DNA of 64,000 bases, taken from an uncultured Phycisphaerales bacterium. GTDB taxonomy: Bacteria > Planctomycetota > B15-G4 > CAYZWU01. Below are positions 5,045 through 49,235 of the stretch, one piece after another; position 1 is the first letter of the stretch; the number at the start of each line of letters is the position of its first letter. The stretch is from assembly GCA_964542475.1 (NCBI GenBank), contig CAZIUL010000009.1:65818-129817 (forward strand), written 5' to 3'. The notes under the pieces are model-generated. The model worked only from the letters and a program-made list of their open reading frames with translations, was not told where the DNA came from and did not search any database. The translations under genes were made by a program, and so were the position numbers.

Positions 5045-5707
5045 TCACATCCATTTCTTTTCCAAAAACCTCAGTTCGTACCCGCTTCTGTAGCTGAGGA
5101 TACGCTCGTACAGTTTTTGGAATGTAGTCTGGTCATCGAACAGATCTTCCCAATTAACTTGAAACGCCGGACCAAAGACCCCTGTTTCCAAGGCTATATC
5201 CATGTTTTCCTCAAAACACCTATCGTCATCGAGCATGAGTGAACTTAAGGCAATAATTAATCTTGATGCGACGTTTTCACCAAAAAACTCGAGATTAAGC
5301 CGAGCATAGCGTCTTGCATCGAAATATCGGCTGGTCTTCAGCGCAAGCCTGCTTATTGTATCGAGAAGAGCTCTTTCGATCTCAGGATGCCCCCCGGCCA
5401 GCGGAAAAGCCTTTTCGTAAGCTGCAAGAGCCTCGCCTGCATTGCCGGATTCGCTCCGGATATAAGCCTTCATCAGAATAGCGTAGAGGTTCTCAGGATC
5501 ACGCCTGAGGATCTCCTCGATGTTTTTTTCGGCAGCACCGATCTTCTTGATGGTCATGTTGATGGCAAGCGAAGCCTCGAGATCCCCAAGGCTCATCTGA
5601 GGCGCGGGTTCATAGACAAAACCAGCCATAAGAATGGTGACACAAACAGCTGCGCCCGCTGTGTAGAGTACAAATCGGCCCCAGAATCCGTTTCTTTTAT
5701 CATCCAT
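5045..5707 (-). CDS. Membrane-anchored TPR-like protein (possible T4P accessory)
   Basis: The ORF as given overlaps the pilC 3' end, so the likely start is the internal ATG (MDDKRNGFW) at 5707. One TM helix (FVLYTAGAAVCVTILMAGFV) followed by an alpha-helical TPR-like region (AYEKA...). Same strand and tight spacing with pilC. Confidence 0.45.
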   Translation of the reverse strand: MDDKRNGFWGRFVLYTAGAAVCVTILMAGFVYEPAPQMSLGDLEASLAINMTIKKIGAAEKNIEEILRRDPENLYAILMKAYIRSESGNAGEALAAYEKAFPLAGGHPEIERALLDTISRLALKTSRYFDARRYARLNLEFFGENVASRLIIALSSLMLDDDRCFEENMDIALETGVFGPAFQVNWEDLFDDQTTFQKLYERILSYRSGYELRFLEKKWM

Positions 5708-5720
5708 GACGCATTTATCC

Positions 5721-6956: not shown

Positions 6957-8726
6957 TTACTCCTTTTGAGCCGGTATCACATTCCCGTCATGACTGTTGG
7001 CAGCCATTTCATCCTCGGCAGGCACTTCATCCCCCATGGTCACCCTGAGAACCTCTTCCATCGATGTTTTGCCGCGCATGACATTGAGCATTCCGCAGCG
7101 CCTCAAGGTCATCATGCCGTCCTTGAGTGCGGCCTGCTTGATATCGATGGCGGATTTACCGTCGATAACCAGCCGCTTGACCCGTTCTGTAACCGGCAGC
7201 GTTTCCAGCAGTGCGAAGCGGCCCTTGTACCCCCCGTTGCACCGGTTGCAGCCCACGGCCCTGTAAACAGTCCCCTCTTCTGCCTCTTCTTCCGTCAAAC
7301 CGTTGGATATCAGCCGCTCGGCGGGCACATCAATCCGCTCCTTACACGAGGAGCACAATACCCTTGCCAGCCGCTGAGCAGCCACGAGGAGCACAGAAGA
7401 TGCGACCATGAACGGATCAAGACCCATGTCTATCATTCGTGTAATGGTTGAGGCCGCGTCGTTGGTGTGCAGAGTGGAAAGCACGAGGTGGCCGGTCAAA
7501 GCCGCCTTTACGGCTATCTCCACTGTTTCCGAGTCGCGGATCTCGCCGACCAGGATCACATCCGGATCCTGACGCAGTATTGAACGCAGCGCTCCGGCAA
7601 AGGTCATGCCCCGCTTGGCATTGACAGGCACCTGATTGATGCCTTCGAGCTGGTACTCGACCGGGTCTTCAACCGTAACGAGGTTTATCTCCGGGTTCCA
7701 TATCTCCTTTACCGCCGAATAAAGCGTTGTGGATTTCCCGGATCCCGTGGGTCCGGTGATCAGTATCATGCCGTACGGCTGCTTTATGGAATATCTGTAG
7801 TTGTCCAGGGCCTTCTTCTCGAACCCGAGGTTTTCGAGGTTCAAGGTAAGATTGGAAACGTCCAGAAGCCTTAGTACAACCTTTTCTCCATGCACGACAG
7901 GAAGTATCGATACCCGAAAATCAACCTGACGATTCTCGACCTTCACCTGAAACTTACCGTCCTGCGGTCTCCGCTTTTCAGCAATATCCAGGGAAGCCAT
8001 GATCTTGAGCCGCGAGACGATCGAATTCTGCATCGCTCTCGGAGGGCTCATGACCTCTTTCAAAACACCATCCTGGCGGTAGCGCACAACTATCTTCTTC
8101 TCGAACGGCTCGATGTGTATGTCGGACGCACGGTCACGGATGGCGTTTGCCACTATCAGATTCACAATACGGACTACAGGAGAGCCTTTCTCGGAGATAT
8201 CGAGATCCAGCTCATCGCCCTTCTCATGCTCCTCGTTTATCTCGACATCCACATTATTGATGTTGTCGAGAATGCTGGCCATCCTCTCCTCGTCATCACT
8301 GAAAGCCTTTTTTATGATCTCGTTGATCGACCTTTCCGAGGCGACAACAGGGCGCAGCTCGCAGCGGGTCAGGATGCAGATGTTGTCCATTTTGAGAATG
8401 TCGAACGGATTCGCCACAGCGAGGGTCAGGAAGTTGCCTATCTTCGCTACCGGAAAAACCACGTACTCCTCAGCCATCTTCTGTGGAATGAGGTTGAGAA
8501 GGCTGTCGTCCGCTGATAGACGCTCCGTGTCGATCGGCGGGAAGCCGCTCTCGCTGGCCAGGATCCCTATCAGCTCCTTTTCTTCGATCTTCCCGGCATC
8601 AACGAGGGCCGAGGCAAGGGACTTTTCCTGGCCCTGTGCGGTTTCCAATGCTTCGGAAATCACATCTTCTGAAAGGCTGGCTCCTTTGATCAGAACCGAG
8701 CGTACTTTGTTGTTGAAAGTGGACAT
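6957..8726 (-). CDS. pilB: Type IV pilus assembly ATPase PilB (GspE family)
   Basis: N-terminal GspE_N-type domain. Walker A ITGPTGSGKSTTLYS, Asp box, His box. C-terminal tetra-Cys zinc motif CSSCK...CNRCNGGYKGRFA. Confidence 0.9.
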   Translation of the reverse strand: MSTFNNKVRSVLIKGASLSEDVISEALETAQGQEKSLASALVDAGKIEEKELIGILASESGFPPIDTERLSADDSLLNLIPQKMAEEYVVFPVAKIGNFLTLAVANPFDILKMDNICILTRCELRPVVASERSINEIIKKAFSDDEERMASILDNINNVDVEINEEHEKGDELDLDISEKGSPVVRIVNLIVANAIRDRASDIHIEPFEKKIVVRYRQDGVLKEVMSPPRAMQNSIVSRLKIMASLDIAEKRRPQDGKFQVKVENRQVDFRVSILPVVHGEKVVLRLLDVSNLTLNLENLGFEKKALDNYRYSIKQPYGMILITGPTGSGKSTTLYSAVKEIWNPEINLVTVEDPVEYQLEGINQVPVNAKRGMTFAGALRSILRQDPDVILVGEIRDSETVEIAVKAALTGHLVLSTLHTNDAASTITRMIDMGLDPFMVASSVLLVAAQRLARVLCSSCKERIDVPAERLISNGLTEEEAEEGTVYRAVGCNRCNGGYKGRFALLETLPVTERVKRLVIDGKSAIDIKQAALKDGMMTLRRCGMLNVMRGKTSMEEVLRVTMGDEVPAEDEMAANSHDGNVIPAQKE

Positions 8727-8764: not shown

Positions 8765-9829
8765 TTAATGATGCGTCAACATCCGTTCCAGCTCATCGGT
8801 TTCCGTTGTATGTGACATGGCATCTTCGTATGTAATCTGGTTGCTGTTGTACAAGTTCGCCAAAGACTGATTCATCGTTACCATTCCAAACCTGTGGTTG
8901 GTCTGGATTATGCTGTATATTTGGTGGGCCTTGTCGTCACGAATAAGCGCCTTGACAGCAGGATTGGTCAGCAGGACCTCTGCTGACAGAATTCTTCCCT
9001 TGGCATTGGCCGCGGGCAGAAGCTGCTGACAAAATACTCCTGCCAGCGTAAAGGAAAGCATTGTCCTTATTTGCTGTTGCTGGTAATCAGGGAACACATC
9101 CACGATCCGGTTGATTGTCTGAACGGCATCTGAAGTATGAAGCGTTGCCAGGGTCAGGTGCCCTGTTTCCGACAGTGTCAAAGCCGCTTCGATTGTTTCG
9201 AGATCGCGCATCTCGCCGACCATGACAACATCGGGATCCTGCCTAAGCACCGAACGCAGCGCCTTCTTGAAGGCATGCGTGTCCGAGCCCACTTCCCTCT
9301 GGGTTATCAGCGCGTTCTTGTTCTGGTGCAAAAACTCGATCGGGTCCTCGATGGTCACTATGTGACAGCGCCTTTTCGCGTTGATCTGATCCAACATGGC
9401 AGCCAGCGTCGTGGACTTACCGGAACCTGTCGCCCCGGTAACGAGAATGAGGCCTTTTGGGAGGTTGCACAGGTTTTCGCAAACCTTGCGCGGCAGCCCA
9501 AGGTCATCGAAGTTATCGATCCTGTACGGTATGACCCGCAAAACCGCTCCGACGGCACCGCGCTGCACAAAAACGTTCGTTCTGAAACGGCCGAGCCGCT
9601 GCAGCCCGAAGGAAAAATCCAGTTCCAGCTCCTTTTCGAACTTTGCGATCTGATCGGAGGTCAATATCGAATAGATAATCGACTTCGTGTTCTCCGGCAT
9701 CAGAACATCGTACTCCGTGTTCTGAAGCACTCCGTTGATTCTCAGCTTTGGTGGTGACCCGGCAGCAATATGAAGATCCGATCCTCCCCTTTGAGTCAAC
9801 ACTTCAATCAGCTCTTGCATACTCAACAT
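8765..9829 (-). CDS. pilT: Twitching-motility (retraction) ATPase PilT
   Basis: 354 aa. Walker A VTGATGSGKSTTLAAM. PilT-type AIRxLIRE-like segment ALIRDDKAHQIYSIIQT. Immediately upstream of pilB. Confidence 0.85.
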   Translation of the reverse strand: MLSMQELIEVLTQRGGSDLHIAAGSPPKLRINGVLQNTEYDVLMPENTKSIIYSILTSDQIAKFEKELELDFSFGLQRLGRFRTNVFVQRGAVGAVLRVIPYRIDNFDDLGLPRKVCENLCNLPKGLILVTGATGSGKSTTLAAMLDQINAKRRCHIVTIEDPIEFLHQNKNALITQREVGSDTHAFKKALRSVLRQDPDVVMVGEMRDLETIEAALTLSETGHLTLATLHTSDAVQTINRIVDVFPDYQQQQIRTMLSFTLAGVFCQQLLPAANAKGRILSAEVLLTNPAVKALIRDDKAHQIYSIIQTNHRFGMVTMNQSLANLYNSNQITYEDAMSHTTETDELERMLTHH

Positions 9830-10103: not shown

Positions 10104-12146
10104 TCAACCCTCATCTTCTTCTTTGTTATACTTGGCGATGATTGCTTCTGCAATCTTGGATGGGACCAGATCGTAGTGGGAAAACTCTATGGTATAGGAC
10201 CCCTCACCGGCTGTGATTGACCTCAGATCCGTTGAATATGTCTGAATTTCCTGAAGCGGCACCGTAGCCTTGATGATCTGAATGTCGCCGATGGAATCCA
10301 TTCCTTGAATCCTTCCCCTTCGTCCGTTCACGTCAGAGGTGATGTCCCCCATGAACTTCCCGGGAATCGAGACTTCAATATTGGCGATCGGCTCAAGCAA
10401 AACAGGCCGCGCCTTCATAAACGCGTCCTTGAAAGCTTTTGTGGCAGCAACCTTGAAAGAAGCCTCTGATGAGTCAACGTCGTGGTAGGAACCGTCTACC
10501 AATCTCGCCTTGACATCGACCACTGTATAACCCGCAATCACCCCGGCATCGAGCACTTCCCTTATCCCCTTCTCGACCGCTGGTATGTACTGCCTGGGTA
10601 TAACGCCGCCGACGATCTCGTCGGAAAAAACGAAACCCTCTCCTCTCTCAACGGGTTCAAGGATCAGCTCAACTTCACCGTACTGGCCGTGACCGCCCGT
10701 CTGTTTCTTGTGCTTGTGATGCCCCCCTGATGTCCCCTGTATTGTTTCTTTAAGAGGAATCTTCGGCAGCTTCGTCTCAACTTCCACCTTGTAGCGCGAC
10801 TTCATCCTCTTGATGATGTTTTCCAGGTGAAGCATACTTATCCCAAGAATGATCATTTCAGCGGTCTGGGGATCCCGCTTGGCTTCGAATGTAGAGTCCT
10901 CGGTGTTCAATTTTTTCAGGGCTGTACCGAGTTTTTGTTCGTCATTCCGGCTTTTGGGAGAAACCGCAAGAGAAACCATCGGCGCAGGCATGTCCATGGC
11001 CGGCACAACGACATTACTCTTTTCATCGGTTACCGTGTCGGAGTTCTCCAACGTTTCAATCTTCGAAAATACCAGTATGTCACCCGCCACAGTCTGCTCT
11101 TGAACAGGCTCGAGCTCCTTTCCCTGGGGGCGGAAGACGTTACCGATCTTCTCGTTTTTCTCGGTCCGTGGATTGTATATGATCAGGCCGGGACTGATGG
11201 ATCCGGTGTACATCCTGATGTAGTTCATCTTGCCCACATAAGGATCTGTCACCGATTTGAATACGAAACCAACCGGGTCATCGCTTTCCCTGGGATCAAG
11301 GCGGATTTCTTCGTCTCCCTTGGAAGCGGAGCGAAAAGGTCCATCCAATGGGGAAGGAGCGTATTCAGCCAGGAACTCCATCGCTTCCGCTACTCCAAGA
11401 TCCTTTTCCACGGCCGTGCAAAGCACGGGCACCAGGCTCTTGTTGTTGATGGCAATCCTTAGCAGTTTTTTCAGATCCGCCGGTTCGATGGTTTCGCCCT
11501 CGAGATATCTCTCCATCAGCTCTTCGTCGTTTTCGACCAGCGCTTCAATGAGATCCAACCTTGTTTGTTCGACCCGATCCTTCATGGAGTCGGGCGCTTT
11601 TTCTGGAGCGTTGAGGCAATCGACCAGGGTGGAAACCTTGCCCCCGGTCGTATCCGGAATAAAGACAGGATAAATGTTGCTGCCGAAGAACTCCCTGAGG
11701 TTCCCTATGAGCCCGTCCCAATCAACGTTTTCCATGTCGACCTTGTTGATGATGATCACCTTGGCAAGGTCCAGCTTACCGGCTTCCTCCCACAGCTTGC
11801 GTGTATTGTATAAGATACCGTTGAAAGCATTGATATTGACCAACGCTGTTTCAGCGGCATAAAGCGATGATATGGCTTCACCGATGAAATCGGGGTATCC
11901 GGGTGTATCCAACAGGTTGATTTCGTGCTCGTTGTGGTTCAGGTGCATGATTGACAGGTTGATCGAATGTTTCTTGTCCTTTTCTTCAGGATCGTAATCC
12001 GAAACGGACGTGTTGTCATCGATCTTGCCGAGCCTGGTCACAGCCCCTCCCTTGAAAAGAAGCGCATCGACCAGAGAGGTTTTCCCTGAGTCCGCCCCAC
12101 CGATAAAGGCTATGTTTCTTATAGCTTTTGCCTCATAGTCAGCCAT
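10104..12146 (-). CDS. Elongation factor G-like GTPase (EF-G paralogue, divergent P-loop)
   Basis: 680 aa. Five-domain EF-G architecture (G domain, then domains II to V). G1 motif GGADSGKTS instead of the canonical AHVDAGKTT. DTPGYPDF (G3) and NKVD (G4) present. Confidence 0.75.
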   Translation of the reverse strand: MADYEAKAIRNIAFIGGADSGKTSLVDALLFKGGAVTRLGKIDDNTSVSDYDPEEKDKKHSINLSIMHLNHNEHEINLLDTPGYPDFIGEAISSLYAAETALVNINAFNGILYNTRKLWEEAGKLDLAKVIIINKVDMENVDWDGLIGNLREFFGSNIYPVFIPDTTGGKVSTLVDCLNAPEKAPDSMKDRVEQTRLDLIEALVENDEELMERYLEGETIEPADLKKLLRIAINNKSLVPVLCTAVEKDLGVAEAMEFLAEYAPSPLDGPFRSASKGDEEIRLDPRESDDPVGFVFKSVTDPYVGKMNYIRMYTGSISPGLIIYNPRTEKNEKIGNVFRPQGKELEPVQEQTVAGDILVFSKIETLENSDTVTDEKSNVVVPAMDMPAPMVSLAVSPKSRNDEQKLGTALKKLNTEDSTFEAKRDPQTAEMIILGISMLHLENIIKRMKSRYKVEVETKLPKIPLKETIQGTSGGHHKHKKQTGGHGQYGEVELILEPVERGEGFVFSDEIVGGVIPRQYIPAVEKGIREVLDAGVIAGYTVVDVKARLVDGSYHDVDSSEASFKVAATKAFKDAFMKARPVLLEPIANIEVSIPGKFMGDITSDVNGRRGRIQGMDSIGDIQIIKATVPLQEIQTYSTDLRSITAGEGSYTIEFSHYDLVPSKIAEAIIAKYNKEEDEG

Positions 12147-12587: not shown

Positions 12588-13469
12588 TTATCTCCATAGG
12601 GATGAAGCAAATCGCGGCCATTCCTCCAAGAGCTCGATGATCTCCGCCCTGAAGAATATAACGGTCACGACCCCCAATGAAAGGAAAGGCCCAAACGGGA
12701 CCTCATGCTTTCCGGTGATTAGCCTGTACGGCACGCCAACTATGCTGCCTGCCGCACAGCCCGCGACAAATACCATCAAAACACCTTCCCATCCGAACAT
12801 ACCACCCACAAAAGCCATGAACTTGACATCTCCCATGCCAAGGGCCTCCTTTTTCAGCGCGGCCTTTCCGATCCACCCAACGGCAAGGAGGGTTCCCCCG
12901 CCTACCAGAGCGCCGCCAAGCGAGGAGATGAGGCCCGCAAGATGGGCGTTTAAAGCCTCGATGAAAAGGCTGCTGTTCTCCTGCAAGCCCGGCAGGAGCG
13001 CGCATGCCAACGGTGCTGCCACAATCCCGGAATAGGTAATCTCATCCGGAATGATCTTGAAATCCAGGTCGATGAAAGTAACCACCAGCACGGTTGCTAG
13101 CATGTACATCTGGATGATGTAGATTCCTAAAAGTTGAAGACGTTCGGACCCGCTGTTGATGATGTCGGGTGCATGGCCGATGGTCAGGCACACGAATAGT
13201 ATTGATGTGAGGGCTTCGACCAAAGGATATCGCCACGAAAGCAAGCCGCCGCAAAAACGGCATCGGCCGCGCAAGCGGACGAACGATACCACTGGTATGT
13301 TGTCATACCATGGTATCGATTTTCCGCAAGCCGGGCAAAACGACCTCATTGGGCGTGTTACTGTAAGGGATTCCCTTGGAAGCCGGTAGATGAGAACATT
13401 GAGAAAGCTGCCGACCATGGCCCCAAAAACGCCCGCGACAACCGAAAACAAACAGATCGGAAAGCTCAT
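12588..13469 (-). CDS. pilD: Prepilin peptidase / N-methyltransferase PilD (A24 family)
   Basis: N-terminal tetra-Cys zinc motif (CPACGKSI...CRFCGG). Multi-TM body with the catalytic Asp region (GMGDVKFMAFVGG). 293 aa. Confidence 0.9.
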   Translation of the reverse strand: MSFPICLFSVVAGVFGAMVGSFLNVLIYRLPRESLTVTRPMRSFCPACGKSIPWYDNIPVVSFVRLRGRCRFCGGLLSWRYPLVEALTSILFVCLTIGHAPDIINSGSERLQLLGIYIIQMYMLATVLVVTFIDLDFKIIPDEITYSGIVAAPLACALLPGLQENSSLFIEALNAHLAGLISSLGGALVGGGTLLAVGWIGKAALKKEALGMGDVKFMAFVGGMFGWEGVLMVFVAGCAAGSIVGVPYRLITGKHEVPFGPFLSLGVVTVIFFRAEIIELLEEWPRFASSLWR

Positions 13470-13503: not shown

Positions 13504-14367
13504 TCATTGGCAGTCGCAATTGATCCATATATGACTGAACGTGTTTTCTATCCTATTCCCGCCAAAATCGGTAAAGCCCAGAAGATCCCTCCAAAGCTCG
13601 TAGCGGCGCCCTTTCAGAAAACCCCCTGACGGCTTCACATCAACAAACGAACTGCCGGTCCCTGCTGTGCTGATCGAACAGACAAGGTCCAATCCGCCAA
13701 AGTCATTGTCAACCTCTCCGCTCCCGCCTTTTGGCTCTTCACCAATTTTAACTACCTCATTCGAAACACGCATACCCGCTCTTTGGCCCAGCACGGAACC
13801 GGGAAACAAGGGCTCTGAAAACTTCAGCCGTAAAAGCGACCCCGGAGTCACATCAAGGCCGCGAATGTTTATTTCTTGCACAGGCTTGCTGTTCACCGCC
13901 ACGAGCACCGGGGCTGATCCGGGATCACAATCAACAAAATGAGAAAGTCCTACAGGTTCGCCGGATACGGTACTGAAAGAAGATGAATAACAGCGGTCAA
14001 GGTGAAACCCCCCTGTTGATAAAACAGCAATATATGATGGAAACCCATTGAAGCAGACCTTGTATTCGCATCCTGGAAGGAGACCTGAGTCCGAGCAATC
14101 CTGTGCTTGCGGAAGAGCGGGGAAAAACCTGGCCTCGCTGCCGTTGACAATCCAGCGCCCCCGGGCTGCCTCTCCATCCGCGTTCAAAATCGACACCGTA
14201 TCCGGGTTGATTGATGACCTGTCGACTTCTTTGTTGAATTTGAAAACCAGCGCTTCGTTCAGACAAACACCGTTTTTCTCTTCCTGGATAAAACTCAAAA
14301 GTGAAAAGTCGGAAGCTCTTCCGCAGCCAATCATAATCAGGCACAAAAAACAGAGAGCTTTTTTCAT
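13504..14367 (-). CDS. Cys-rich predicted lipoprotein, function unknown
   Basis: Likely start at internal ATG giving MKKALCFLCLIMIGCG (lipobox LIMIGC). Rest soluble with about 10 Cys. Co-directional between pilD and the giant lipoprotein genes. Confidence 0.5.
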   Translation of the reverse strand: MKKALCFLCLIMIGCGRASDFSLLSFIQEEKNGVCLNEALVFKFNKEVDRSSINPDTVSILNADGEAARGRWIVNGSEARFFPALPQAQDCSDSGLLPGCEYKVCFNGFPSYIAVLSTGGFHLDRCYSSSFSTVSGEPVGLSHFVDCDPGSAPVLVAVNSKPVQEINIRGLDVTPGSLLRLKFSEPLFPGSVLGQRAGMRVSNEVVKIGEEPKGGSGEVDNDFGGLDLVCSISTAGTGSSFVDVKPSGGFLKGRRYELWRDLLGFTDFGGNRIENTFSHIWINCDCQ

Positions 14368-14476: not shown

Positions 14477-17400
14477 CTAATACTTAAACCTCATCCGCAC
14501 GTAGTCGATTTGTGGTTTTTTGCTTTCCGGACTCAGGGTGCCAATCCAAGCTGAATCGAGCCTGATACGAAAACGGATGAACTGCTTCCCGGATAACTCG
14601 GTCAGGTCGTGTGTCCATGTGTCTTCGTTAACAACAGCTGGGTCTTCGTTCGCAACCTTTGATCCCGGGATCAGCGCATCGGTTCCCTGGAACTGAAAAG
14701 CCACATGGTTGTCCTCCGGGATATAGTCGATTTGGGCCACCTTACTATCCGGGGCTTCAACCTTGAAGTCGTTGGAGTCCTCATCATCGGGAGGAGTTGC
14801 ACCGTTCAACACATAATGACCGATAGTATATGCCTCAGCCCACGACTGTCCGCCTATGGTGGTTTCCCTGACCCCCCTGAAACCGTCCAGCAAGTCAGGA
14901 AATGTACCCGGTTCCGGGTTTTCGAACCAGAAATACGGCGGGATTTCATCGTTGATAGGGTTCCTGTCGATAATACGCCCCATGTCGATCCACTTGGACA
15001 CTGCATACGTATGCGAGCTTATGGTGGACTTGGTCTTATACGGATCCACAAGGCATTCAGTGGTTCTGGGAAACTCACCATAGTAGTTCTTGGGAGTGCC
15101 CTTGACCCGGACCTCAAAACGGGAATAGTAGACTTGCTGGCCTGCATTATAATGCTTCATCTTGTCAGGCTCCCATTGGATCTTGCAGATGTCGCATTCA
15201 ACCGATGTCCATTCTTTCGGCTCTCCATCAGGCCACCCCACCATGACCAGGTCGTTCTCCGGATCAGGCACCATAAGTTGAATGAGGCCGTATCCTCCAT
15301 ACCCGCCGTCTCCGCGTGACCAGGAACAAAAAGCCGAATAATTCAGGAGCCCGTTGCCTGGTTGGATTTTGCATGGCTCCAGGATTCCAACATAACCCAC
15401 TCCAGTGGTTTCCTTGGCGTCATCTCCCCAACCCCCAGCCACATTGAGACAACCGTTTTCTTCGATTGTGATGGTCTTTGCGGAGTTCAGGATGATGGCT
15501 CCTCCGCTGCCACCTCCCGCACCGCCTCCGAAACTGGAATGGCCGATCACTTCACCGCCCCCTCCTCGCCCGCCCATAGCATATATACAGCCGGTGCTCT
15601 CTATGCTGATTCCCTCCAGGCTGTGGATTGCGATGGAGCCGCTGCCGCCGCCGCCGCCGCCGCCCTTGGAATCGTAACAGCTTGCAGCCTTGGGAGGATT
15701 TTGCGCCGCGCCCTGACCCTTTGTAACCGGGCGCATGCTGTCCAGCCGTGAACCACCGCCACCCCCGCCCTGTCCGCCGATAAGCTCTTTCACCTCGCCG
15801 TATTCACCGATGAAATCGTTGTCCTCATCTCCATCCTTGAAAACCAAGTTTCCAATATCCCCGGGATGAGGTGCATGATCAATGTGCTCATCACCGGTGT
15901 TTCCGAACTCGTTTATCTTCGTCTGTTCATCAAGAGGATCGCCTTCATGCCATGTAGGATCGTATTCGTAAGATCCATCCCACCACTCCCAGACGTCCCT
16001 GATATAAAACTCCCCATCTTCATCCACACCATACTGCCCCTTCCCAGGATATCCTATATGTCCTTCCTGGTAAAAGGAGCCTCCTCCGCCGCCTGCGCCG
16101 CGGCTGTCAGGATCATTTTTCGAACCCTGCCAGGGAACAAACTTGTCCTTTGCGCCGCTCTCACCCCCAAAACCTCCTGTCTGCTTGATGTTGCCTGGAC
16201 CATAGCCTCTCTCGCCGGTCGGCACGGATTGAAGGTCTGTCAGGTTCTTGAAATTCGGGGGGATGGGAGGCTGACCCATGCCGCCGCGGCCGCCGCCGGG
16301 TCCCGGGGGGCCGCCAGGCGTCGGCATGAACGCAGAATTGAAAGTGGTGTCATTTGTTCCATTCTGCCCGGAAACGTCGATCGTGCCCCCTATCGTCACT
16401 TCTCCTGTAGCCGTAAAAACCAATGGTTTTGATCCCATGGCCATCACAGTCACACCGTACGGTATATTGATCTCCCTGAAATGGAACTCACCGGTCTTGA
16501 TAATAACAGGTTTTGTTATGTCAGGAGTTGCACCGTTGTTCAGAGGCAGCGGCTGGTAATCAGTATCCAGCATCACGATCGATGCCACACCAACCACGGG
16601 GCGGAAATCTCCGAGTTCCCCGCTACCGCTGAGACCGAGCCCGGCAAGAAGGTGCTTGTACTCAGGAGGTTGGCCATCCAAATCCTGAACGTTCCAGATA
16701 GCTCTGGCGTTGGCGAGCTCGTGCTTAGTCTGTTCCATCTCGTTATCGAGGAACTCTTCCATGAAGAAGTCTTCGATAACCGCATCACCTGGACCGGGAT
16801 CATAGGTTTCGAAGCTTCCAACGAATTCGGCACCGTACGGATCGAAGCCATAGTTTTCGTGCATGCTTCCACCGCTCAGGTTCTTCAATGAAAAACGCAC
16901 CATCATCTCGATGCGCTTTCCTATCGGGAGAATTCCGGAAGGTTCGAGCTTGACCGTAGCCCCGTGATATGAGTTGTTCAAAAGAGTAACCGTTCCACCC
17001 AGCTCGTAATGCCTGAGCGCGAAGTCTACCCTTCTATCGGAGGTCAGCTGTGCATCGTCGATCGCATGGGTTTCCTTCACAGACCCGGTTTGCAGGTCCA
17101 GATGGACCACCTCCATAGCGTTGGCCTCATAAAGAACCATTGTGTCGATATGAAAAAAATCCAAGCTGCAGTAATCGCCTGAAAGGCCGGACACCACGGT
17201 CTCACAGGTCAGGTTGGAGTTGATCTTTTCGATGGATGAGATGGCGTTCGGCGTGCCGGGATCATATACCCTAAGGCCGTAAAGAGCACCGTCCCTGCCC
17301 ATGGTCAGATCCACGAAGTCTCCAAGGCCGGCTACCAATGTTCCGAGCACGACCACAGCTCCGGTGTCCACGTCGATTTCCAAAAGGGAAGTTCCAAGGT

Positions 17401-18575
17401 CGTTCAAACCATAAAGCTTGCGCTGCAGCTCGGTATCCAGACGGATACAGATCGAACTTGCCTTGACTCCCAAAGGGCTGAATAACCTTTCGTTGGACAG
17501 CTCGCAGATCGTAAACGGCGGAGTGCCTGAAATATTCTCGAAGTCCGCGTCATAAAGGGCGGTCTCTGAGCAGACCAGCATCATGTGCTGTTTCGTTGCC
17601 ACAATCGACTTGACACCTACCTTGGTCATGTTGAAAAACGTATACCCCAGAAACTCGAACTCATCCGAGCCTGCTTCCATCATCGCAAGATATCCAAGCT
17701 CGGAGAATGTCTCGTCAACAGCCGTGTACATGACTGAATCATCGTATGCGAGAAATATGTTCTCCTCACTGACGGTATCCCCATCAAGGTCCGAGCCCTG
17801 GATGTTATCGCTGTCAAAATCAAGGGGCTGATCGAACTGAATCTCGATGTCCCTTGGCGCGGGAAAACCCTGCAACTCGCCTGAAACACTGTTGATGGGG
17901 AAATCCACGGTGCCGTCCACAGGATCGGTGGTCACCACTCCGGGTGGCAGGACCGGCTGGTTCTTGAAGAAAAAAGCAGGCATTTCTTCGGGCCAGGTTG
18001 TAAACTCGATCGGAAAATCCACACCTGGATCAATGGCAACCAGATCTTCGATACTCCCCGATGTTCCGGTCGGTACAAAAACGGTGTATGTATAACCCGG
18101 CAGAAGACCCGGGACGTTTTGGGCCACCGCATTTATCGAAAGATCGATCTCCCCCGTGGGTATATAGGGAGTAAAAACAACTACGTTGTCCATGATCTCG
18201 TATGTGCCCCTGGCAACGATTAGGTTCTTTGTCCCATCGAGAGCAACATCCGGGCCCTGATAATCCAAGCCGGGGTTGGCATTGATGAGAATGTTCCCTG
18301 AATGGACATCACCCGCTACCGGATCGGAAAAGGTGAACAGGACCTGCTGGCTCAACGGCACATTCGCAGGAGGTGTTTTCGTAGCTCCTGACAAGTCGGT
18401 GTATTCGGGAAAGGTTATGGATGTCAGCGTCTGGCCTTTGTATCCGGCCCCTCCATGTCCGCCGCCGCCGCCACCGCCGCCGCCGCCGCAGCTCGACAGG
18501 GCAAACGTAAACAGGAACGAGCAAAACAAAACCACTGAAAACCGAGCAGGATGAAATGCCTTAAACCGTTTCATG
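14477..18575 (-). CDS. Giant predicted surface lipoprotein, paralogue B (~1365 aa) with poly-Gly tether and internal Gly-rich / beta-helix-like repeats
   Basis: Likely start MKRFKAFHPARFSVVLFCSFLFTFALSSCGGGGGGGGGGHGG (AAGGA SD upstream). The track ORF begins 17 codons earlier at a GTG/TTG-type start. Internal tracts GGQGGGGGGS, KGGGGGGGSGS, GGRGGGGE, and the motif GGAIILNSAKTITIEENGCLNVAGG. Collagen-like PGGPPGPGGGRGG. Confidence 0.7.
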
Positions 18576-18667
18576 GTTCCAATTCCTTTATATTGAAAAC
18601 CGAGCCATACAATAAAAACTCGCATTTCCTGTACAAAAACTACGGCATCAGCTTCCAGATGCCATTG

Positions 18668-21600
18668 CTAATCTTCAACGATCAGATAAGGAATCACAAT
18701 CGAGTCTATGCTGGGAACCACCCCAGCATCCACATTTGCTGTAAACAGGGCCTTGAAACGAATATAATTGTAATTCTTATATGCCATATTCACATTGAAA
18801 CCCATAACCTCGCCAGGCTGAACCCACCCTGATTGACTGCCCGGGATATAAGGATTGGCCGTGGTTTGAAAGCTGAGGTCCAAGCCTGTCCCTTCAGGGA
18901 TATTTTCCAGATCCGGCAATATAATCGGGTTAATGAACTGCATGTCATAACCGCCTTGGATATCAGTGCCGAGATAAGGCGACACTATTGTAGATTTCCG
19001 TTTTACGTAGTCGAAGATCATGAAATACCGCGAATTGTCGCCGTATTTACCTGTAAAATTTGTCAAGGGGCCCTGGGCATTCGGATATTTGCCTGGTTGT
19101 GTACAACCGTAGACAAGGCCAATGACGGAGTTTGGACTGGTAGGATCGTCACCGCGTGTGTATACCCTGAACCTCGGCAGCGCGCTGGACAAGATCGCTG
19201 CATGATAGGTAAAACCGTTACTTATTGATGCGCTGGCCTTCGTGTTCGGGTCCGTCCTGTACTCGATAAGCATGGACTGGTTCGAGTCGTATTCAAAGCC
19301 CGGATTTCCGACCGGTTTGTCAAACTCCGGCCACGGTACGTAGTAAAAAAAATTCTGACTCCCAGCGTTTTTGGGCGCGTAGAGGTTATGCCAGTCCATT
19401 GAATAGGGCACACCATCATTGTTTTTCCCGAGCACAACTGTATGGACATAAGGCTGGCGGTTTTGATTGAAATTCTGAACGAGACCGCTTTGGGGGTGGT
19501 CCGGGATCCCATCGCAATTATCGTCGTTTGACAAAGGTACAATGTTTGTCAATGAAATGAGAATCGACATCTTCTCAATCACTGAGTTCGTTATCCAGCC
19601 GCCGATAGGAGCCCAGGAAAGGCCGATCAGATCCAGAACCGTATCCTCATAAGCAAGTATATCCGGGGAACAATCGCCCCGCCGGTATGTGTGTTGAAAC
19701 CGGCTCCCGTATGAACTGTTAACCGGCGTACCCGTGCCGAAGGGGAGTGCGAACAACGGATCCGGATAGTGCGGCGAGGACGGGGGTGGTGGATTCCATT
19801 CGTCGAAAATATGTTCAATGAACTCCACTGAATGTCCGCTCAAAAAACCGTTCAGGCCTAACGCGATGTCAGCGATGTGTGGACCATAGACCATGGGATC
19901 GCCTTGGCCATCGACCTGGTGGTCATAAAAGATACCACCCGAGATGGGCGGGTTTCCCACAGTTCCTGTTTCCGGCAAGCCCATGAACCTGTGCACCAAA
20001 ACGCCGTTCTCCGGACGGCTCTCCGGGTCAGGCGCTGCTTGAATGTTGAACTCGTACTTAAAATCCACCGCGGGCGGAAACGCCCCGTAACCCGTGCTGT
20101 CCGAATACGCCACGCACCATTTGCTCCCTTTATCGAAAAAGTAAGCGGGCAGCCCCAAAGCCTGTCCCCCGAGGCTCATGACCCCCAACACGCCGATCTT
20201 TTCCAGATCCTCTTCTACGCCCTCGGGCAGGTCATCGCCGAAAGAATCGTAAAAATCATTCAAGACCTGATCAGGGGGCACCGTGCGAATCGTCATGCGA
20301 AGAGATTTGGGCTGACCACCGAAGCCTACCAGCTGTTCCCCGGTAAGGCCGAACTGGTCGTCAACTATCGGTTCGAATGAAAGAATGCTGTTGCTTTTAC
20401 GTGCTGCCGTACGACCGACTTTCATGTAGTCGAAACCGGGATCTTCGATGTTCACGGAGCCTTTACAAACATAAAAAGTTTCGTACGGTCTGAACGAACC
20501 CGGATCCATGGCTTCTGAAAACCGGAAAGAAAGCCGCCAGTTGGAATCTACAGAATTGGTTCCGCTGGAGCCGGGATCGTAGTCAACTTCCTCCCAGATC
20601 TCATCGTTCTCGTTCCACTCCTCCCAGATCACGAAATTGAAAAGATCGGAGTTCTTGGCATCCTCAAGATCATCATCGTCTTTAGGGTAGTTATCCGGGT
20701 CTACGGCGGCCAAAGGATCTCCGGTTCCTGGGATCGGTTCGAAAAACTCGGCCCGCTGCAGGTGGTACTCGTCCGGATCCTGGACGCCTGGAATACCGGG
20801 ATCAGGCGGGACGTTGAACTGTCCCACTATATAAAGTGTGTCCGGCGTGTTGTGATCGACGCGTACTTTCTCCTCTGTCGCCGTATTTTGGCGCAGCGTC
20901 AACAGTGCTCCCGCCCACTCCCCATCGCCTCCGTTTGCTTCATCGTTGAAGCTGTTTTCCGGGTTCTGGGGGTCCCAGATCGGGCCCATATCCGGGTCAA
21001 CTATCGCTGTCAATCCGGAACCGTTGCCCACGGAACCCTCCTCGTCCTGATCGGAAGGATACCTTACTTCCCGTATGATCCTGGGCGGTGTCAGGTCAGG
21101 GAGAAAACCATTGAAAGAAATGTCTCCGAAGTTGATGAAATCGAGATAGGTATTTCCGGGATTGAAGCCTACCGGCTTGCCCGGTGTTCCCAGAAGATCT
21201 TCCCTCGCGCTCAATGAGGTGCCGGTAGCGGATTGGAGAACGTTGTTTCCTGTTCCTTCCGAGTAAATCCTGATTCTCAGGTATCCATCCTGAGAGGCTA
21301 TTGGGTTCCCTGCCTGGTCGAATATGAGGGGGCTAGCTGGAAAACCCACCGCACCCTCGACAACCGGATTCAAAACCAACCTGTCGCCAAACAGCACCGC
21401 TTCAACCGAAATCAAATTATCAATATCCGTCCTGATCTGGACCGGGCTCTGAGCCGTTAAAAAACCGTTACCGTCTAGGTTAAGGCACTTGCTGTCCAGC
21501 TCCTTCGAAAAATCCAGGATCAACACACTGTTTCTTGGAATAATCGGTACCTTGAAAGACGAGTTGGGGAGATCCGTGAGACCGAAAGAACCAAGGTCGA

Positions 21601-21952
21601 GCTTCTTCACTTGGTTAAGCGGCATGCCAGGATCGAAAAGCGATTTGGGGTAACCGCTCACCAGGAGTCCGGTGATGGGGTCCGTCTCGATAATGGTTTC
21701 CGGGCTGACCACTTCAGCAACATTCCCCGCAGGATCAAGCAGTGACCTTCCGAAATATATCTCTTCCAGATAAAATTCGCTATCCCCTTGTTGCCCACCG
21801 GGATTGGAAGAACCACCTCCTCCACCCCCGCCGCCCCCGCCGCCCCCGCCGCCGCATCCCCCAAGAACCACGGCGACGACAAGAAAAGAACCAAAGCATA
21901 CCTTACCGAATCTAACTGCTGTGGACCCACTCATGTAACTTACCCTCAGCAA
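18668..21952 (-). CDS. Giant predicted surface lipoprotein, paralogue C (~1090 aa) with poly-Gly tether
   Basis: N-terminus ...MSGSTAVRFGKVCFGSFLVVAVVLGGCGGGGGGGGGGGGGGSSNPGG (ATG at 21934 with GAGG upstream, or TTG at 21952). Long Asp/Gly/Pro-rich body. 42 bp downstream of paralogue B. Confidence 0.7.
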   Translation of the reverse strand: MLRVSYMSGSTAVRFGKVCFGSFLVVAVVLGGCGGGGGGGGGGGGGGSSNPGGQQGDSEFYLEEIYFGRSLLDPAGNVAEVVSPETIIETDPITGLLVSGYPKSLFDPGMPLNQVKKLDLGSFGLTDLPNSSFKVPIIPRNSVLILDFSKELDSKCLNLDGNGFLTAQSPVQIRTDIDNLISVEAVLFGDRLVLNPVVEGAVGFPASPLIFDQAGNPIASQDGYLRIRIYSEGTGNNVLQSATGTSLSAREDLLGTPGKPVGFNPGNTYLDFINFGDISFNGFLPDLTPPRIIREVRYPSDQDEEGSVGNGSGLTAIVDPDMGPIWDPQNPENSFNDEANGGDGEWAGALLTLRQNTATEEKVRVDHNTPDTLYIVGQFNVPPDPGIPGVQDPDEYHLQRAEFFEPIPGTGDPLAAVDPDNYPKDDDDLEDAKNSDLFNFVIWEEWNENDEIWEEVDYDPGSSGTNSVDSNWRLSFRFSEAMDPGSFRPYETFYVCKGSVNIEDPGFDYMKVGRTAARKSNSILSFEPIVDDQFGLTGEQLVGFGGQPKSLRMTIRTVPPDQVLNDFYDSFGDDLPEGVEEDLEKIGVLGVMSLGGQALGLPAYFFDKGSKWCVAYSDSTGYGAFPPAVDFKYEFNIQAAPDPESRPENGVLVHRFMGLPETGTVGNPPISGGIFYDHQVDGQGDPMVYGPHIADIALGLNGFLSGHSVEFIEHIFDEWNPPPPSSPHYPDPLFALPFGTGTPVNSSYGSRFQHTYRRGDCSPDILAYEDTVLDLIGLSWAPIGGWITNSVIEKMSILISLTNIVPLSNDDNCDGIPDHPQSGLVQNFNQNRQPYVHTVVLGKNNDGVPYSMDWHNLYAPKNAGSQNFFYYVPWPEFDKPVGNPGFEYDSNQSMLIEYRTDPNTKASASISNGFTYHAAILSSALPRFRVYTRGDDPTSPNSVIGLVYGCTQPGKYPNAQGPLTNFTGKYGDNSRYFMIFDYVKRKSTIVSPYLGTDIQGGYDMQFINPIILPDLENIPEGTGLDLSFQTTANPYIPGSQSGWVQPGEVMGFNVNMAYKNYNYIRFKALFTANVDAGVVPSIDSIVIPYLIVED

Positions 21953-25918: not shown

Positions 25919-27013
25919 TCAAGATCTTATATCCGCGAGCCTGATGCCCCTCGAAATCCCGCTGATAACGAGCTTCAACTCGTCGGGGTTGTCCGCTGCA
26001 TCCAGCGCCTCGTGGTACCCTATCTTCCCTTCGCTGTAAAGCTGGGCCAGGGACTGGTTGAACGTGACCGTGCCAAAGTACTCCCCTTCCCTCAGCGCCT
26101 TTGTGAGCTCGATGGTTCTCCCCTCTTTTATGATCTCCTTTACTGTCGGAGTATCAATCAACAATTCGCAAGCCGGAACGCGTCCGGTTCCATCTATAGT
26201 TTTAACGAGCCTCAGGGAGACCACTCCGGAAAGCACCAGCGAAAGCTGGAGACGGATGAGTTCGTGCTGGTGAGGGGGAAAATGTGCGAGAATCCGCTCA
26301 ACGGTCTGAACAGCGTTTACTGTATGAAGAGTGGAGAGCACCAGATGCCCCGTTTCAGCGGCTTTTATCGCCGCTTCCATTGTATCCATGTCGCGCATTT
26401 CGCCCATGACAATCACATCCGGGGCCTGTCGAACGGCATGTTTGAGAGCTGTTGTGAAATCCTTGGAATCCCTGCCGACTTCCCTCTGGGTAATGACGCT
26501 CCCCTTGTCGGTGAACACGTACTCTACCGGATCTTCGATGGTAATGACATGGCGGTGCATGTTGAGGTTGATGTGCTCGATCATGGAAGCCATACAGGTG
26601 GACTTGCCGCTTCCGGTGACCCCGGTTACCAGCACAAGACCACGGCTCAAACTGGAAAGCCTTTCCAGCTGTGGAGCGGGTAGGTTGAGCTTTCTGAAGG
26701 AAGGCACTTCGGATTGAATGTAGCGGAAAACCAACCCGGGCTCACCCATCTGTTTGAAGATGTTTACACGAAACCTCCCTACTCCGACTACGGCATATGA
26801 CAAGTCTATCTCTTCACCCTTGACATACCGCTCCATCCCCTGATCCTCGAGCAACTGGGCAAGAATCAGGGTTGCGAAATCCCGGGATATCTCATCCTCG
26901 GATATGAACTTGAGACCACTTTTCCCCCGAACAGTGGGTCTGCACCCTGTTTTCAAAATCAGGTCGGACGCGTTCTCTTCCATCGTGATCTTTAGTAAAT
27001 CGTTTAGTTTCAT
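25919..27013 (-). CDS. PilT/PilU-family type IV pilus retraction ATPase (second paralogue)
   Basis: 364 aa. Walker A VTGVTGSGKSTCMASM, Asp and His boxes. A PilT-like C-terminal region that diverges from the 8765-9829 copy. Confidence 0.85.
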   Translation of the reverse strand: MKLNDLLKITMEENASDLILKTGCRPTVRGKSGLKFISEDEISRDFATLILAQLLEDQGMERYVKGEEIDLSYAVVGVGRFRVNIFKQMGEPGLVFRYIQSEVPSFRKLNLPAPQLERLSSLSRGLVLVTGVTGSGKSTCMASMIEHINLNMHRHVITIEDPVEYVFTDKGSVITQREVGRDSKDFTTALKHAVRQAPDVIVMGEMRDMDTMEAAIKAAETGHLVLSTLHTVNAVQTVERILAHFPPHQHELIRLQLSLVLSGVVSLRLVKTIDGTGRVPACELLIDTPTVKEIIKEGRTIELTKALREGEYFGTVTFNQSLAQLYSEGKIGYHEALDAADNPDELKLVISGISRGIRLADIRS

Positions 27014-49169: not shown

Positions 49170-49235
49170 GATACCTCGCGGCCCCGTTCTGTAAGAAAAC
49201 CTTTTCGAATCGCCTTGCCGGATGACCGGTTGTAC

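Follow-up and report, generated by a model that had tools for sequence, protein, structure and literature searches.

Three new families of large predicted lipoproteins with a poly-glycine tract, encoded beside the prepilin peptidase PilD in uncultured Planctomycetota

The A, B and C genes and their neighbors

The window (the whole stretch of DNA that was analyzed, 64,000 nucleotides) carries three very large genes, A, B and C, that encode predicted lipoproteins. They lie together with a smaller lipoprotein gene, S, a prepilin peptidase gene and type IV pilus genes:

1-2650, minus strand: gene C, first 883 codons of a 1134-aa lipoprotein; the window edge cuts the gene
2561-2587, minus strand: lipobox Cys22 and 8-Gly tract of C, mixed GGN codons
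4228-9829, minus strand: type IV pilus/T2SS-like genes (Pfam N_methyl, T2SSF, T2SSE, MshEN), comprising the next five entries
4228-4950, minus strand: pilin
5045-5788, minus strand: unknown gene
5721-6953, minus strand: PilC/GspF
6957-8726, minus strand: PilB/GspE
8765-9829, minus strand: PilT
10104-12146, minus strand: EF-G-family GTPase (Pfam), a regular companion of the block that separates PilD from either C or PilT
12588-13469, minus strand: PilD prepilin peptidase (Pfam A24_N_bact and Peptidase_A24)
13504-14367, minus strand: gene S, Cys-rich lipoprotein of about 287 aa (MIGC|GRAS), without poly-Gly, weak Big_5-like N-terminal domain
14477-18574, minus strand: gene A, start at 18574; translated ORF of a 1365-aa lipoprotein
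18458-18490, minus strand: lipobox Cys29 and 10-Gly tract of A, mostly GGC codons
18668-21934, minus strand: gene B, start at 21934; translated ORF of a 1088-aa lipoprotein
21812-21856, minus strand: lipobox Cys27 and 14-Gly tract of B, mixed GGN codons
31930-33780: secretin of the window's pilM-N-O-secretin operon
33901-35343: PilO of the same operon

An earlier note on this DNA had described three genes with a signal peptide, a lipobox Cys and a poly-Gly stretch, two of them in tandem beside pilD and a Cys-rich lipoprotein gene (S), and both observations hold. All three ORFs are uninterrupted on the minus strand, with MKRFKAFHPARFSVVLFCSFLFTFALSSC followed by G10 in A, MSGSTAVRFGKVCFGSFLVVAVVLGGC by G14 in B and MDTTKLATGLGLLLLFLGFASC by G8 in C; the complete gene C is found on the parent contig (L008:6236-9637, 1134 aa). 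The n- and h-regions and the lipobox are canonical in A, B and C, and the N-termini of A, B, C and S all fit a PROSITE PS51257-type lipobox pattern, with the Cys at positions 15-29.

Runs of at least five Gly number only 10 in a six-frame translation of the whole window. Three lie directly behind the lipobox Cys of A, B and C and five inside A or C, so the placement of poly-Gly is not due to chance. The further Gly runs reported for the protein bodies lie in A or C; B has no internal run. The segment read as collagen-like (PGGPPGPGG) proved to be a single short conserved Gly/Pro segment in A, with no (G-X-Y)n repeat.

Sequence families and structural models

A, B and C are three new protein families. 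None of them can be assigned to a Pfam, NCBIfam, PHROG or PDB family, and the only matches are weak ones to the Ig-like Big_5 domain (PF13205), which is matched weakly in A and S and above threshold in relatives. Catalytic, carbohydrate-binding and pilus-related domains were sought and not detected. The 84 homologues of B are all hypothetical proteins, mostly from Planctomycetota MAGs where an organism is named.

The three genes had also been called paralogues of one architecture, which is true only of parts of them. Pairwise BLASTP among A, B and C gave no significant match, but hhalign with the A family profile revealed a remote relationship between A and C in two collinear body regions (A 931-1128 with C 822-978, 97.8% probability, E = 1.3e-12; A 551-743 with C 307-494, 81%, E = 1.2e-5). 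A and B aligned at 91% probability (E = 1.1e-6), or at 95.4% (E = 1.7e-8) for the last 120 aa alone, and have in common only a C-terminal domain of ~60-70 aa; profile comparison also identified an N-terminal region common to B and C. The end modules are therefore common, whereas the body of B is unrelated to those of A and C. The last residue is aromatic (F, Y or W) in 85 of 91 members of the A/C-type superfamily. The regions defined by these comparisons and by structure prediction are as follows:

14480-14728, minus strand: C-terminal domain of A, common with B (hhalign), ending in ...YVRMRFKY
15275-16342, minus strand: Gly-rich region of A (about residues 745-1100), common with C (hhalign), with invariant Gly clusters and beta-helix-rung-like motifs
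16970-17752, minus strand: beta-propeller of A (about residues 275-535), AlphaFold block with pLDDT about 80-90
18671-18907, minus strand: C-terminal domain of B, a homologue of the A domain listed above (hhalign), ending in ...IVIPYLIVED

The AlphaFold model of B (pLDDT 85.7, pTM 0.81) is compact, all-beta and multidomain, with residues 1-48 below pLDDT 50 and the remaining chain folded with confidence. A search of the PDB found no whole-chain match to this model; single domains resemble modules of S-layer SbsC, alpha-2-macroglobulin MG, CBM and phage tailspike proteins. The model of A is poor (pLDDT 47) and leaves its architecture mostly unconfirmed. Its propeller, the only part modeled confidently, matches generic propellers in Foldseek, among them those of BtuG surface lipoproteins and an S-layer propeller of the YVTN type. 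The beta-helix-like motifs exist in the sequence of A, but in a region that AlphaFold did not model (pLDDT of about 25), and a parallel beta-helix is only a candidate fold there.

Conservation of the gene block

Searches seeded separately with B, A and C all recovered the order B-A-S-PilD-(EF-G)-C. It is shared by more than 25 loci from Planctomycetota MAGs and metagenomes, which bears out the proposal that A, B and C belong together and with the pilus genes. None of the related loci shows the suggested association with the glycosylation cluster (51.5-61.6 kb). B-A-(S)-PilD is present in 15 distinct genome loci, including loci in which B is only 33-35% identical, the order B-A-S-PilD recurs in L043, and the C-seeded search gave A-PilD-(EF-G)-C in 6 metagenome loci. 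S-like genes occupy the gap between A and PilD, and PilD, which lies next to S and A wherever a related locus is complete, is the invariant pilus gene of the block. C directly follows PilD in L019, L025, L027, L028 and L036, and pilus genes follow PilD-EF-G, as in the window, in L007, L011, L012, L033 and L038. B and A overlap by 4 nt in at least nine loci; 4-nt overlaps of S and PilD in three loci (L011, L012 and L038) point to a shared transcript.

The conserved stretch also holds housekeeping-looking genes (Obg, a PDZ protease, the pantothenate kinase PanK and a GTPase upstream, EF-G inside), so some of the synteny may reflect gene order passed down by descent and not a functional link. Together with the solitary extra copies of B and the solitary A-like genes elsewhere in the genomes, these non-pilus genes would fit A, B and C being unexceptional large proteins of the envelope or cell surface, for instance adhesins, particle binders or S-layer-like proteins, that have no tie to the pilus and owe their neighborhood to inherited order in one lineage. 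However, the B-A-S-PilD core outlives replacement of its flanks. In the more distant locus L038 (B about 22% identical), which reads B-like, A-like, A-like, S-like, PilD, OmpA, EF-G, PilT, PilB, PilC, an aspartate carbamoyltransferase gene lies upstream and OmpA has been inserted; EF-G is present in some loci and absent from others; and in the lineage of the window the pilus ATPases are inserted between EF-G and C. At the divergence of B in the main set and in L038 gene order is normally lost, and the S/PilD overlaps likewise argue against mere inheritance. We consider it unlikely that the pilus tie is absent.

A, B and S could instead belong to the pilus machine of this lineage as structural components that span the periplasm or associate with the outer membrane. 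They would then stand in for missing parts (PilP, pilotin, TsaP or something like PilY1) and be neither cargo nor independent surface proteins. S and PilD, as well as B and A, are translationally coupled; no PilP-like lipoprotein lies between PilO and the secretin in the pilM-N-O-secretin operon of the window, and minor pilins and PilY1 were sought in the window and not found. PilY1, like A, carries a beta-propeller. Against such a role, A, B and S show no sequence similarity to PilP, PilY1/PilC, TsaP or pilotins, and they evolve faster than the rest of the block (identities in L007 are 46% for A, 48% for B and 43% for S, versus 58% for PilD, 75% for EF-G and 82% for PilT) and are frequently duplicated, whereas machine components usually evolve slowly and are single-copy. 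In many lineages, moreover, PilD is the sole pilus gene near the block, which does not adjoin pilB, pilC, pilT or a secretin (next to C in L046-L052, there are no matches to PilT, PilB or PilC), and the lipid anchor has been lost from one B subclade, in which a signal-peptidase-I-type signal takes the place of the lipobox and whose member P0065 has a pre-peptidase PPC domain (PF04151). A part in the machine itself seems improbable on this evidence.

The poly-Gly tract, the proposed role and known systems

The tract is specific to the A, B and C families. A lipobox Cys followed by at least three Gly is found in 65 of 82 B homologues (median run 7), C-GG or longer in 7 of 8 A homologues, and the tract in 7 of 8 C-like genes from a metagenome scan. 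Within the related loci, 13/13 A, 15/19 B and 4/5 C genes carry it, or 32 of 37, compared with 1 of 21 other putative lipoproteins (Fisher p = 5e-10), the latter being a small sample chosen with a home-made pattern that may include false positives. The mixed GGN codons of B and C argue that selection acts on the protein, and against an origin by repeat slippage. Tracts range in length from 3 Gly to at least 14, and G/S-rich linkers replace the tract in distant relatives: of 83 distant full-length A/C-type proteins, only 21 have C-G(≥3), another 28 have no more than a G-rich stretch, and the linkers of 27 are of other kinds, often S/G/T-rich (e.g., CSGSGS, CSSSSEE). Some B homologues have C-S-G.., C-T-G.. 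or C-Q-R-G... Given this variability, the linkers of the relatives and the low pLDDT of B residues 1-48, the flexible tether suggested previously is the simplest reading.

The tract might also be a dedicated signal for a sorting or processing factor rather than a mere spacer, a role compatible with the explanation favored below; it could act as a surface-export signal like the Bacteroidota LES, as a stretch that passes through a pore in the outer membrane, or as a Gly-Gly endopeptidase site that releases the protein. It starts exactly at +2, the position of known lipoprotein sorting signals (PMC5080379), is limited to the three families of the block, with hardly an occurrence among the remaining lipoproteins of the same loci, and persists over deep divergence with mixed codons. 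All three families also have conserved C-terminal tails, and the F/Y/W end of the A/C-type proteins is reminiscent of the outer-membrane beta-signal. The variable length, the small share of distant A/C-type relatives with C-G(≥3), the deviating linkers of some B homologues and a block without a conserved candidate receptor or peptidase nevertheless make a dedicated signal doubtful. That A, B and C are assembly artefacts or pseudogenes, or that their Cys is not lipidated (signal-peptidase-I processing or a membrane anchor only), can be dismissed as highly improbable, since the ORFs of 1088-1365 aa are intact and fit the PS51257-type pattern, the identical A sequence is present on 11 independent contigs from several JGI and ENA assemblies, and the lipobox geometry recurs in dozens of full-length homologues.

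With moderate confidence, we favor the view that A, B and C are tethered lipoproteins outside the cytoplasm whose function is coupled to PilD and type IV filaments. The solitary secondary B copies, the many lineages in which the block has PilD as its sole pilus neighbor, and the negative search for pilus-related domains speak against such coupling. A, B, C and S would be SPII lipoproteins that form, with PilD, one co-transcribed block in a deep uncultured Planctomycetota lineage. The Cys would be lipidated, and the poly-Gly and the G/S-rich residues behind it would act as a long structureless tether (about 25 residues in B, up to roughly 9 nm at full extension) that may hold a very large beta-rich ectodomain off the membrane or allow its threading to the cell surface. 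Ig-like modules are predicted for these ectodomains; A and C would also have a propeller and a beta-helix-like, Gly-rich region, and the modules of B would be of the jelly-roll or Ig-like type. An exposed location is suggested by the fast evolution of A, B and S, the duplications and solitary B copies, the lipobox-less B subclade with the PPC domain of P0065, and the resemblance of the A propeller and the B domains to surface and S-layer modules. A, B and C are most likely surface-exposed, with binding or adhesin-type rather than enzymatic roles, and probably work with the pilus machinery as partners at the cell surface; we infer that their export or function depends on a type IV pilus/T2SS-like machine matured by PilD.

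Parts of this arrangement have precedents. Disordered N-terminal linkers occur in about half of E. coli outer-membrane lipoproteins (bioRxiv 10.1101/2021.01.05.425367). As in those Gram-negative proteins, an unstructured stretch here separates the Cys from the folded domain (B is disordered to residue 48), but its composition is extreme, with 8-14 consecutive Gly, and it is limited to particular families of the genome. The LES motif is short and carries negative charge. It is family-independent, lies directly behind the Cys and marks surface-bound lipoproteins of Bacteroidetes (PMC5080379). The poly-Gly tract resembles it in position but consists of uncharged Gly of variable length, in another phylum, and is at most a putative export signal. 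Big_5 matches in A, S and relatives recall Big_5 surface proteins, including S-layer SbsA/SbsC-type modules, but Big_5 covers only about 100 aa per protein here and the other 900-1500 aa have no family. PilY1/PilC adhesins are similar in size (about 1000-1500 aa), in having a beta-propeller and in their genetic link to type IV pilus genes; however, A, B and C do not match that family, are lipoproteins rather than signal-peptidase-I proteins and are not encoded beside minor pilins, and the propeller of A is central, whereas that of PilY1 is C-terminal.

The giant T2SS-displayed or secreted lipoproteins SslE (YghJ) of E. coli and pullulanase PulA carry a low-complexity G/S-rich segment behind the Cys, and E. 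coli sslE lies beside a prepilin peptidase gene (sslE-pppA-yghG-gsp). Secretion of the lipoprotein SslE requires PppA and T2SS-beta (PMC3707838). A, B and C resemble these proteins in their size of more than 1000 aa and their SPII signal and, in the case of SslE, in the adjacent prepilin peptidase gene (PppA there, PilD here). They differ in having no sequence or domain similarity to them and neither an M60-like peptidase nor a glycoside hydrolase domain, in a pure poly-Gly run instead of a mixed linker, in the three or four different lipoproteins per block and in a machine that is pilus-like, with PilT and PilM/N/O. By analogy, an SslE/PulA-like export route may be tentatively envisaged for A, B and C, which are new families within a known kind of system.

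Poly-glycine after the lipobox cysteine

The giant proteins A, B and C and the small Cys-rich protein S, encoded between A and the prepilin peptidase PilD, lie on the same strand. C is cut by the window start and is complete on L008, the parent contig.

14477-18574 (-), A, 1365 aa, in tandem with B
18668-21934 (-), B, 1088 aa
1-2650 (-), C, first 883 codons, cut by the window start
L008:6236-9637, complete C on the parent contig, 1134 aa
13504-14367 (-), S, small neighbour, with MIGC followed by GRAS
12588-13469 (-), PilD, between S and the EF-G gene

In translation, A, B and C each begin with a short charged n-region and a hydrophobic h-region, followed by a lipobox (LSSC with Cys29 in A, LGGC with Cys27 in B, FASC with Cys22 in C; S has MIGC with Cys15). 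All four N-termini fit a PS51257-type lipoprotein pattern (positively charged n-region, h-region, [LVI..][ASTG..][GAS]C, Cys at about 15-35), and A, B and C are predicted to be lipidated, that is, SPII lipoproteins. Directly after the cysteine come 10 Gly in A, 14 in B and 8 in C, as an earlier note on this DNA had described for the three genes. Six-frame translation of the 64-kb window contains ten Gly runs of at least 5, three being these post-Cys tracts and five lying inside A or C; the tract is encoded by mixed GGN codons in B and C and mostly by GGC in A. The open reading frames are uninterrupted, and several JGI and ENA assemblies contain the identical A protein, on 11 contigs in all; the genes are therefore intact and real, not pseudogenes, a possibility raised beforehand.

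A word-indexed search with B gave 84 matches, all 'hypothetical' and mostly from Planctomycetota MAGs. The same search under-sampled A (only 6-8 proteins, even after the Gly-rich part was removed); exhaustive phmmer with A 540-1365 recovered 354 clusters of the A/C superfamily at E ≤ 1e-3 and 168 at E ≤ 1e-10, clusters being defined at 50% identity. Full-length matches in this superfamily are mostly lipoproteins of 1000-1200 or about 1600 aa.

The lipobox is followed by C-G(3 or more) in 65/82 B homologues (median run 7) and by C-GG or longer in 7/8 A homologues. Among 83 distant full-length A/C-type proteins, 21 carry C-G(3 or more), 28 a G-rich linker, 27 another linker (many of these S/G/T-rich) and 7 no lipobox. 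By sequence, the poly-Gly tract is no fixed motif. Among B homologues, the tract is missing chiefly from a subclade (P0065-P0074, about 1320-1380 aa) with a longer N-terminus and a signal-peptidase-I-type signal (AxA followed by Q), lacking lipobox and poly-Gly; the lipid anchor would therefore be dispensable for at least some family members. One protein of this subclade, P0065, has a precomputed PPC-domain match (PF04151). Across the loci of related genomes, 32 of 37 A, B and C genes have the tract, compared with 1 of 21 other putative lipoproteins including the S family (Fisher p = 5e-10), so poly-Gly is not a general lipoprotein property in these loci. The post-Cys tract, whether poly-Gly or G/S-rich, is specific to the A, B and C families.

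The block around PilD

Read on the minus strand from high to low coordinates, the window has B, A, S, PilD, EF-G, PilT, PilB, PilC, an unknown gene, pilin, a HEAT-repeat gene (+) and C. Upstream of B, at higher coordinates, lie genes for a GTPase, PanK, a PDZ protein, a second PilT-like ATPase and Obg, and the secretin-PilO-PilN-PilM genes follow at still higher coordinates.

Searches seeded independently with B, A and C recovered the same block, B-A-S-PilD-(EF-G)-C, which bears out the claim that the three genes belong with the T4P genes. For B, individual homologues were looked up and GTDB genomes were scanned with a 9-sequence B alignment. The scan gave 27 loci, 24 of them titled Planctomycetota or 'uncultured Phycisphaerales' MAGs, the other three being an unclassified 'bacterium' and two contigs from one MAG with the label Pseudohongiellaceae. 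The order Obg-PDZ-PanK-GTPase-[B, or B,B, or A,B]-A-(S)-PilD-(EF-G-PilT, or C) is complete in 15 distinct loci, at B identities down to 33-35%, and the gap between A and PilD holds S-like small lipoproteins even where BLAST misses them. With A as the seed, the locus of the homologue P0115 reads B-A-S-PilD, that of P0225 reads GTPase-ATCase-[B-like, 1085 aa]-[A-like, 1117]-[A-like, 1115]-[S-like, 648]-PilD-OmpA-EF-G-PilT-PilB-PilC, and P0211 and P0142 lie within tandems of B-like and A-like genes. A metagenome scan seeded with the C sequence alone returned no locus, and one with a C-family alignment returned 12, including A-PilD-EF-G-C in five, A-PilD-C in one and PilD-EF-G-C in one. The C-like metagenome genes encode about 1480-1530 aa, with C-G(3-14) in 7/8 and the end ...ENKAF; C directly follows PilD in the related loci L019, L025, L027, L028 and L036.

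The core B-A-S-PilD-(EF-G)-C is kept and the flanks vary; in the lineage of the window, genes for pilus ATPases and the pilin lie between EF-G and C. Overlaps of 4 nt join B to A in at least nine loci, and S to PilD in L011, L012 and L038. The block with PilD is deeply conserved and partly translationally coupled. A, B and S diverge faster than the neighbouring genes in L007 (identities of 46, 48 and 43%, respectively, versus 58% for PilD, 75% for EF-G and 82% for PilT), and solitary extra B copies and tandem duplications are common.

Several neighbours and other window genes have features of their own.

3014-4009 (+), HEAT-repeat protein, opposite strand, between C and the pilin gene
8765-9829 (-), PilT-type ATPase in the pilus cluster
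10104-12146 (-), EF-G-family GTPase, between PilD and PilT (or C)
18642-18665 (-), terminator-like hairpin and T-run, directly 3' of the B stop
25919-27013 (-), PilT-type ATPase among Obg, PDZ protein and PanK, a place also conserved in L031
31930-33780, secretin
33901-35343 (-), PilO-like protein, unusually long (480 aa)
46549-51290 (-), three-gene operon: PrkA, DUF444 (YeaH-like), SpoVR (YcgB-like)
51500-54442 (-) and 58926-61589 (+), YfhO-like very large membrane proteins, 980 and 887 aa
55824-57227 (+), flavin oxidoreductase between the YfhO-like genes

The EF-G gene accompanies the lipoprotein/PilD block in L005, L007, L011, L038 and L044-L054, at 41-75% identity across very divergent lineages. 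Since the usual place of fusA is the str operon, among genes for ribosomal proteins, the EF-G of the block may be a second paralogue with a dedicated role. The PilO-like protein ends in a T2SSB (GspB) domain, and there is no PilP-like gene between its gene and the secretin; in gene content, the window's machine looks like a pilus/T2SS hybrid. The hairpin lies in a 93-nt B-A spacer, versus the 4-nt B/A overlap of many other lineages; a promoter/terminator scan gave nothing exceeding shuffled background. The N-terminus of the HEAT-repeat protein (..VVLLGC followed by VWLFF) is more membrane anchor-like than lipobox-like. Before the window start, downstream of C, L008:1-6036 encodes a DHH/DHHA1 phosphoesterase, a metallophosphoesterase, CutA1 and two PMT_2 family glycosyltransferases, one with TPR repeats.

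GC rises to 0.59-0.60 at the YfhO-like and flavin oxidoreductase genes, the 'glycosylation cluster' (51.5-61.6 kb) that the earlier note had placed near the lipoprotein genes; the flavin oxidoreductase has a weak, sub-threshold UDP-galactopyranose-mutase (GLF) match. We dropped a link between the two, the YfhO-type glycosyltransferase genes being absent beside the block in related loci.

Relationships, folds and C-terminal ends

No pair among A, B and C showed significant similarity in BLASTP, and simple paralogy is therefore rejected. Profile comparison aligned two collinear regions of A and C: A 551-743 with C 307-494 (81% probability, E 1.2e-5), and the Gly-rich, rung-like A 931-1128 with C 822-978 (97.8%, E 1.3e-12, a score that the Gly-rich composition may inflate). 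A and B have in common only a C-terminal domain of about 60-70 aa (91%, E 1.1e-6; 95.4%, E 1.7e-8 when the last 120 aa alone are compared), which C matches weakly (E 1.8e-4), and between B and C the alignment covers the signal peptide, poly-Gly and first Ig-like domain (96%, a score to which the low-complexity part adds). The earlier note's picture of paralogues with one architecture thus stands in part: judged by these profiles, A and C are distant paralogues and all three have a common N-terminal layout of lipobox, poly-Gly and Ig-like domain, and B is a separate family. Together they are three new lipoprotein families with common end modules.

Searches of Pfam, NCBIfam and PHROGs with the full proteins and their C-terminal 150 aa gave no above-threshold match, PDB sequence profiles had no match to the A and B families, and literature searches found no account of a poly-Gly lipoprotein N-terminus or of the three families, in agreement with the earlier statement that no characterised family is known; the families merit Pfam/NCBIfam models. 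The Ig-like model Big_5 (PF13205) scored 18.5 bits in A (E 0.0034) and 15.7 bits in S, both below the gathering score of 23.6 bits, had no match in B or C, and was above threshold in relatives (P0196, 28.0 bits; the L038 B-like protein, 30.7 bits).

The AlphaFold model of A (residues 196-1365, 8 sequences) is poor (pLDDT 47, about 25 in the Gly-rich half). Its only usable part is a beta-propeller at about residues 275-535; as modelled it is of a generic type, similar to the propellers of BtuG surface lipoproteins and an archaeal S-layer protein, among others. The model of B is confident and has no whole-chain structural match in the PDB. Two or three beta-helix rung-like motifs are common to A and C, neither of which matches Beta_helix or Chlam_PMP (GGA[ILV], FxxN repeats) in Pfam. 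The PTPGGPPGPGGGRGG segment of A, previously described as collagen-like, is a single copy without G-X-Y periodicity and so does not merit that name; A has no tandem (Gly-X-Y)n and no Collagen Pfam match. Nothing beyond Ig-like modules and the propeller was recognized as a known domain in A, B or C.

At the other end, the last residue is F, Y or W in 85 of 91 A/C-type proteins, with the C-terminal consensus FLRLPFRF (for example at 14480-14503 (-) of the window and in P0093-P0240), and B-type proteins end in ..IPY plus 1-5 residues. The FLRLPFRF-type end resembles, at the level of residues, the outer-membrane C-terminal beta-signal. The AlphaFold models of A and B contain no beta-barrel, and the last 150 aa of A, B and C have no Pfam match even at E ≤ 10, Por_Secre_tail (T9SS) being absent.

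Possible coupling to type IV filaments and known systems

We lean towards A, B and C being extracytoplasmic tethered lipoproteins functionally coupled to PilD and type IV filaments, and consider this somewhat more probable than otherwise. The Gly tract after the Cys would serve as a flexible tether: it is predicted to be disordered, it varies in length, other low-complexity linkers can stand in its place, and disordered linkers are known to be common among outer-membrane lipoproteins (bioRxiv 10.1101/2021.01.05.425367). Fast evolution, duplications, the signal-peptidase-I-type subclade and S-layer-, CBM- and tailspike-like modules suggest that the proteins are extracytoplasmic and probably surface-exposed. 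Their export or function would be tied to a type IV pilus/T2SS-like machine; by analogy, the export route may specifically be SslE-like, which we propose tentatively and at rather less than even chances. A, B and C lack the prepilin motif (G followed by F-T-L-x-E) and were rejected as PilD substrates; they were likewise rejected as prophage tail proteins, given no PHROG matches and a housekeeping context.

Surface proteins with no tie to the pilus, in a synteny simply inherited, would be a plausible if rather unlikely alternative, because the conservation extends to Obg, PanK and EF-G, and PilD is the only pilus gene near the block in many lineages; a conserved neighbourhood links the block to the prepilin peptidase gene, with the 4-nt S/PilD overlap in three related loci. 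Planctomycetota envelopes are unusual, and their protein composition is largely unknown. It is conceivable, at long odds, that this phylum has an envelope or surface apparatus not recognised before, with B, A, S and C as its subunits, built or run with type IV filaments and using poly-Gly and the aromatic C-terminal tail as its two recognition or threading signals. Such an apparatus could be a pilus/T2SS-dependent lipoprotein display system or a protein scaffold where pilus-like fibres emerge, and would bear on the uncharacterised crateriform structures, which join the inner membrane to the outer one and have fibres attached (PMC5394234). The tract might instead be a dedicated sorting or processing signal, in a post-Cys position comparable to that of the Bacteroidota LES (PMC5080379), a proposal that is compatible with a tether and to which we assign a low probability. 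That A, B and S are structural parts of the pilus machine itself seems quite improbable.

Coupling of tethered lipoproteins to PilD, the reading we prefer, has its closest precedent in SslE, a giant E. coli lipoprotein whose secretion needs the prepilin peptidase PppA and T2SS-beta (PMC3707838). A, B and C differ from SslE/AcfD M60-like lipoproteins in having no M60-like peptidase domain (Pfam, NCBIfam), and from PilY1 and Neisseria PilC in having no match to their C-terminal propeller family (Pfam, NCBIfam, E ≤ 0.1). If they are indeed surface lipoproteins that depend on a pilus or T2SS, the SslE/PulA paradigm would reach a further phylum, and A, B and C would be candidates for adhesion and for the capture of particles or polymers by the uncultured planctomycetes abundant in marine and soil settings. 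A poly-Gly N-terminus specific to these families is a simple candidate for a rule of lipoprotein sorting or tethering beyond Proteobacteria and Bacteroidota. Giant tethered lipoproteins encoded beside type IV filament genes are already known as a kind; what is new is the A, B and C families, the specificity of the Gly tract and a deeply conserved block of three giant lipoproteins and one small one, all without annotation.
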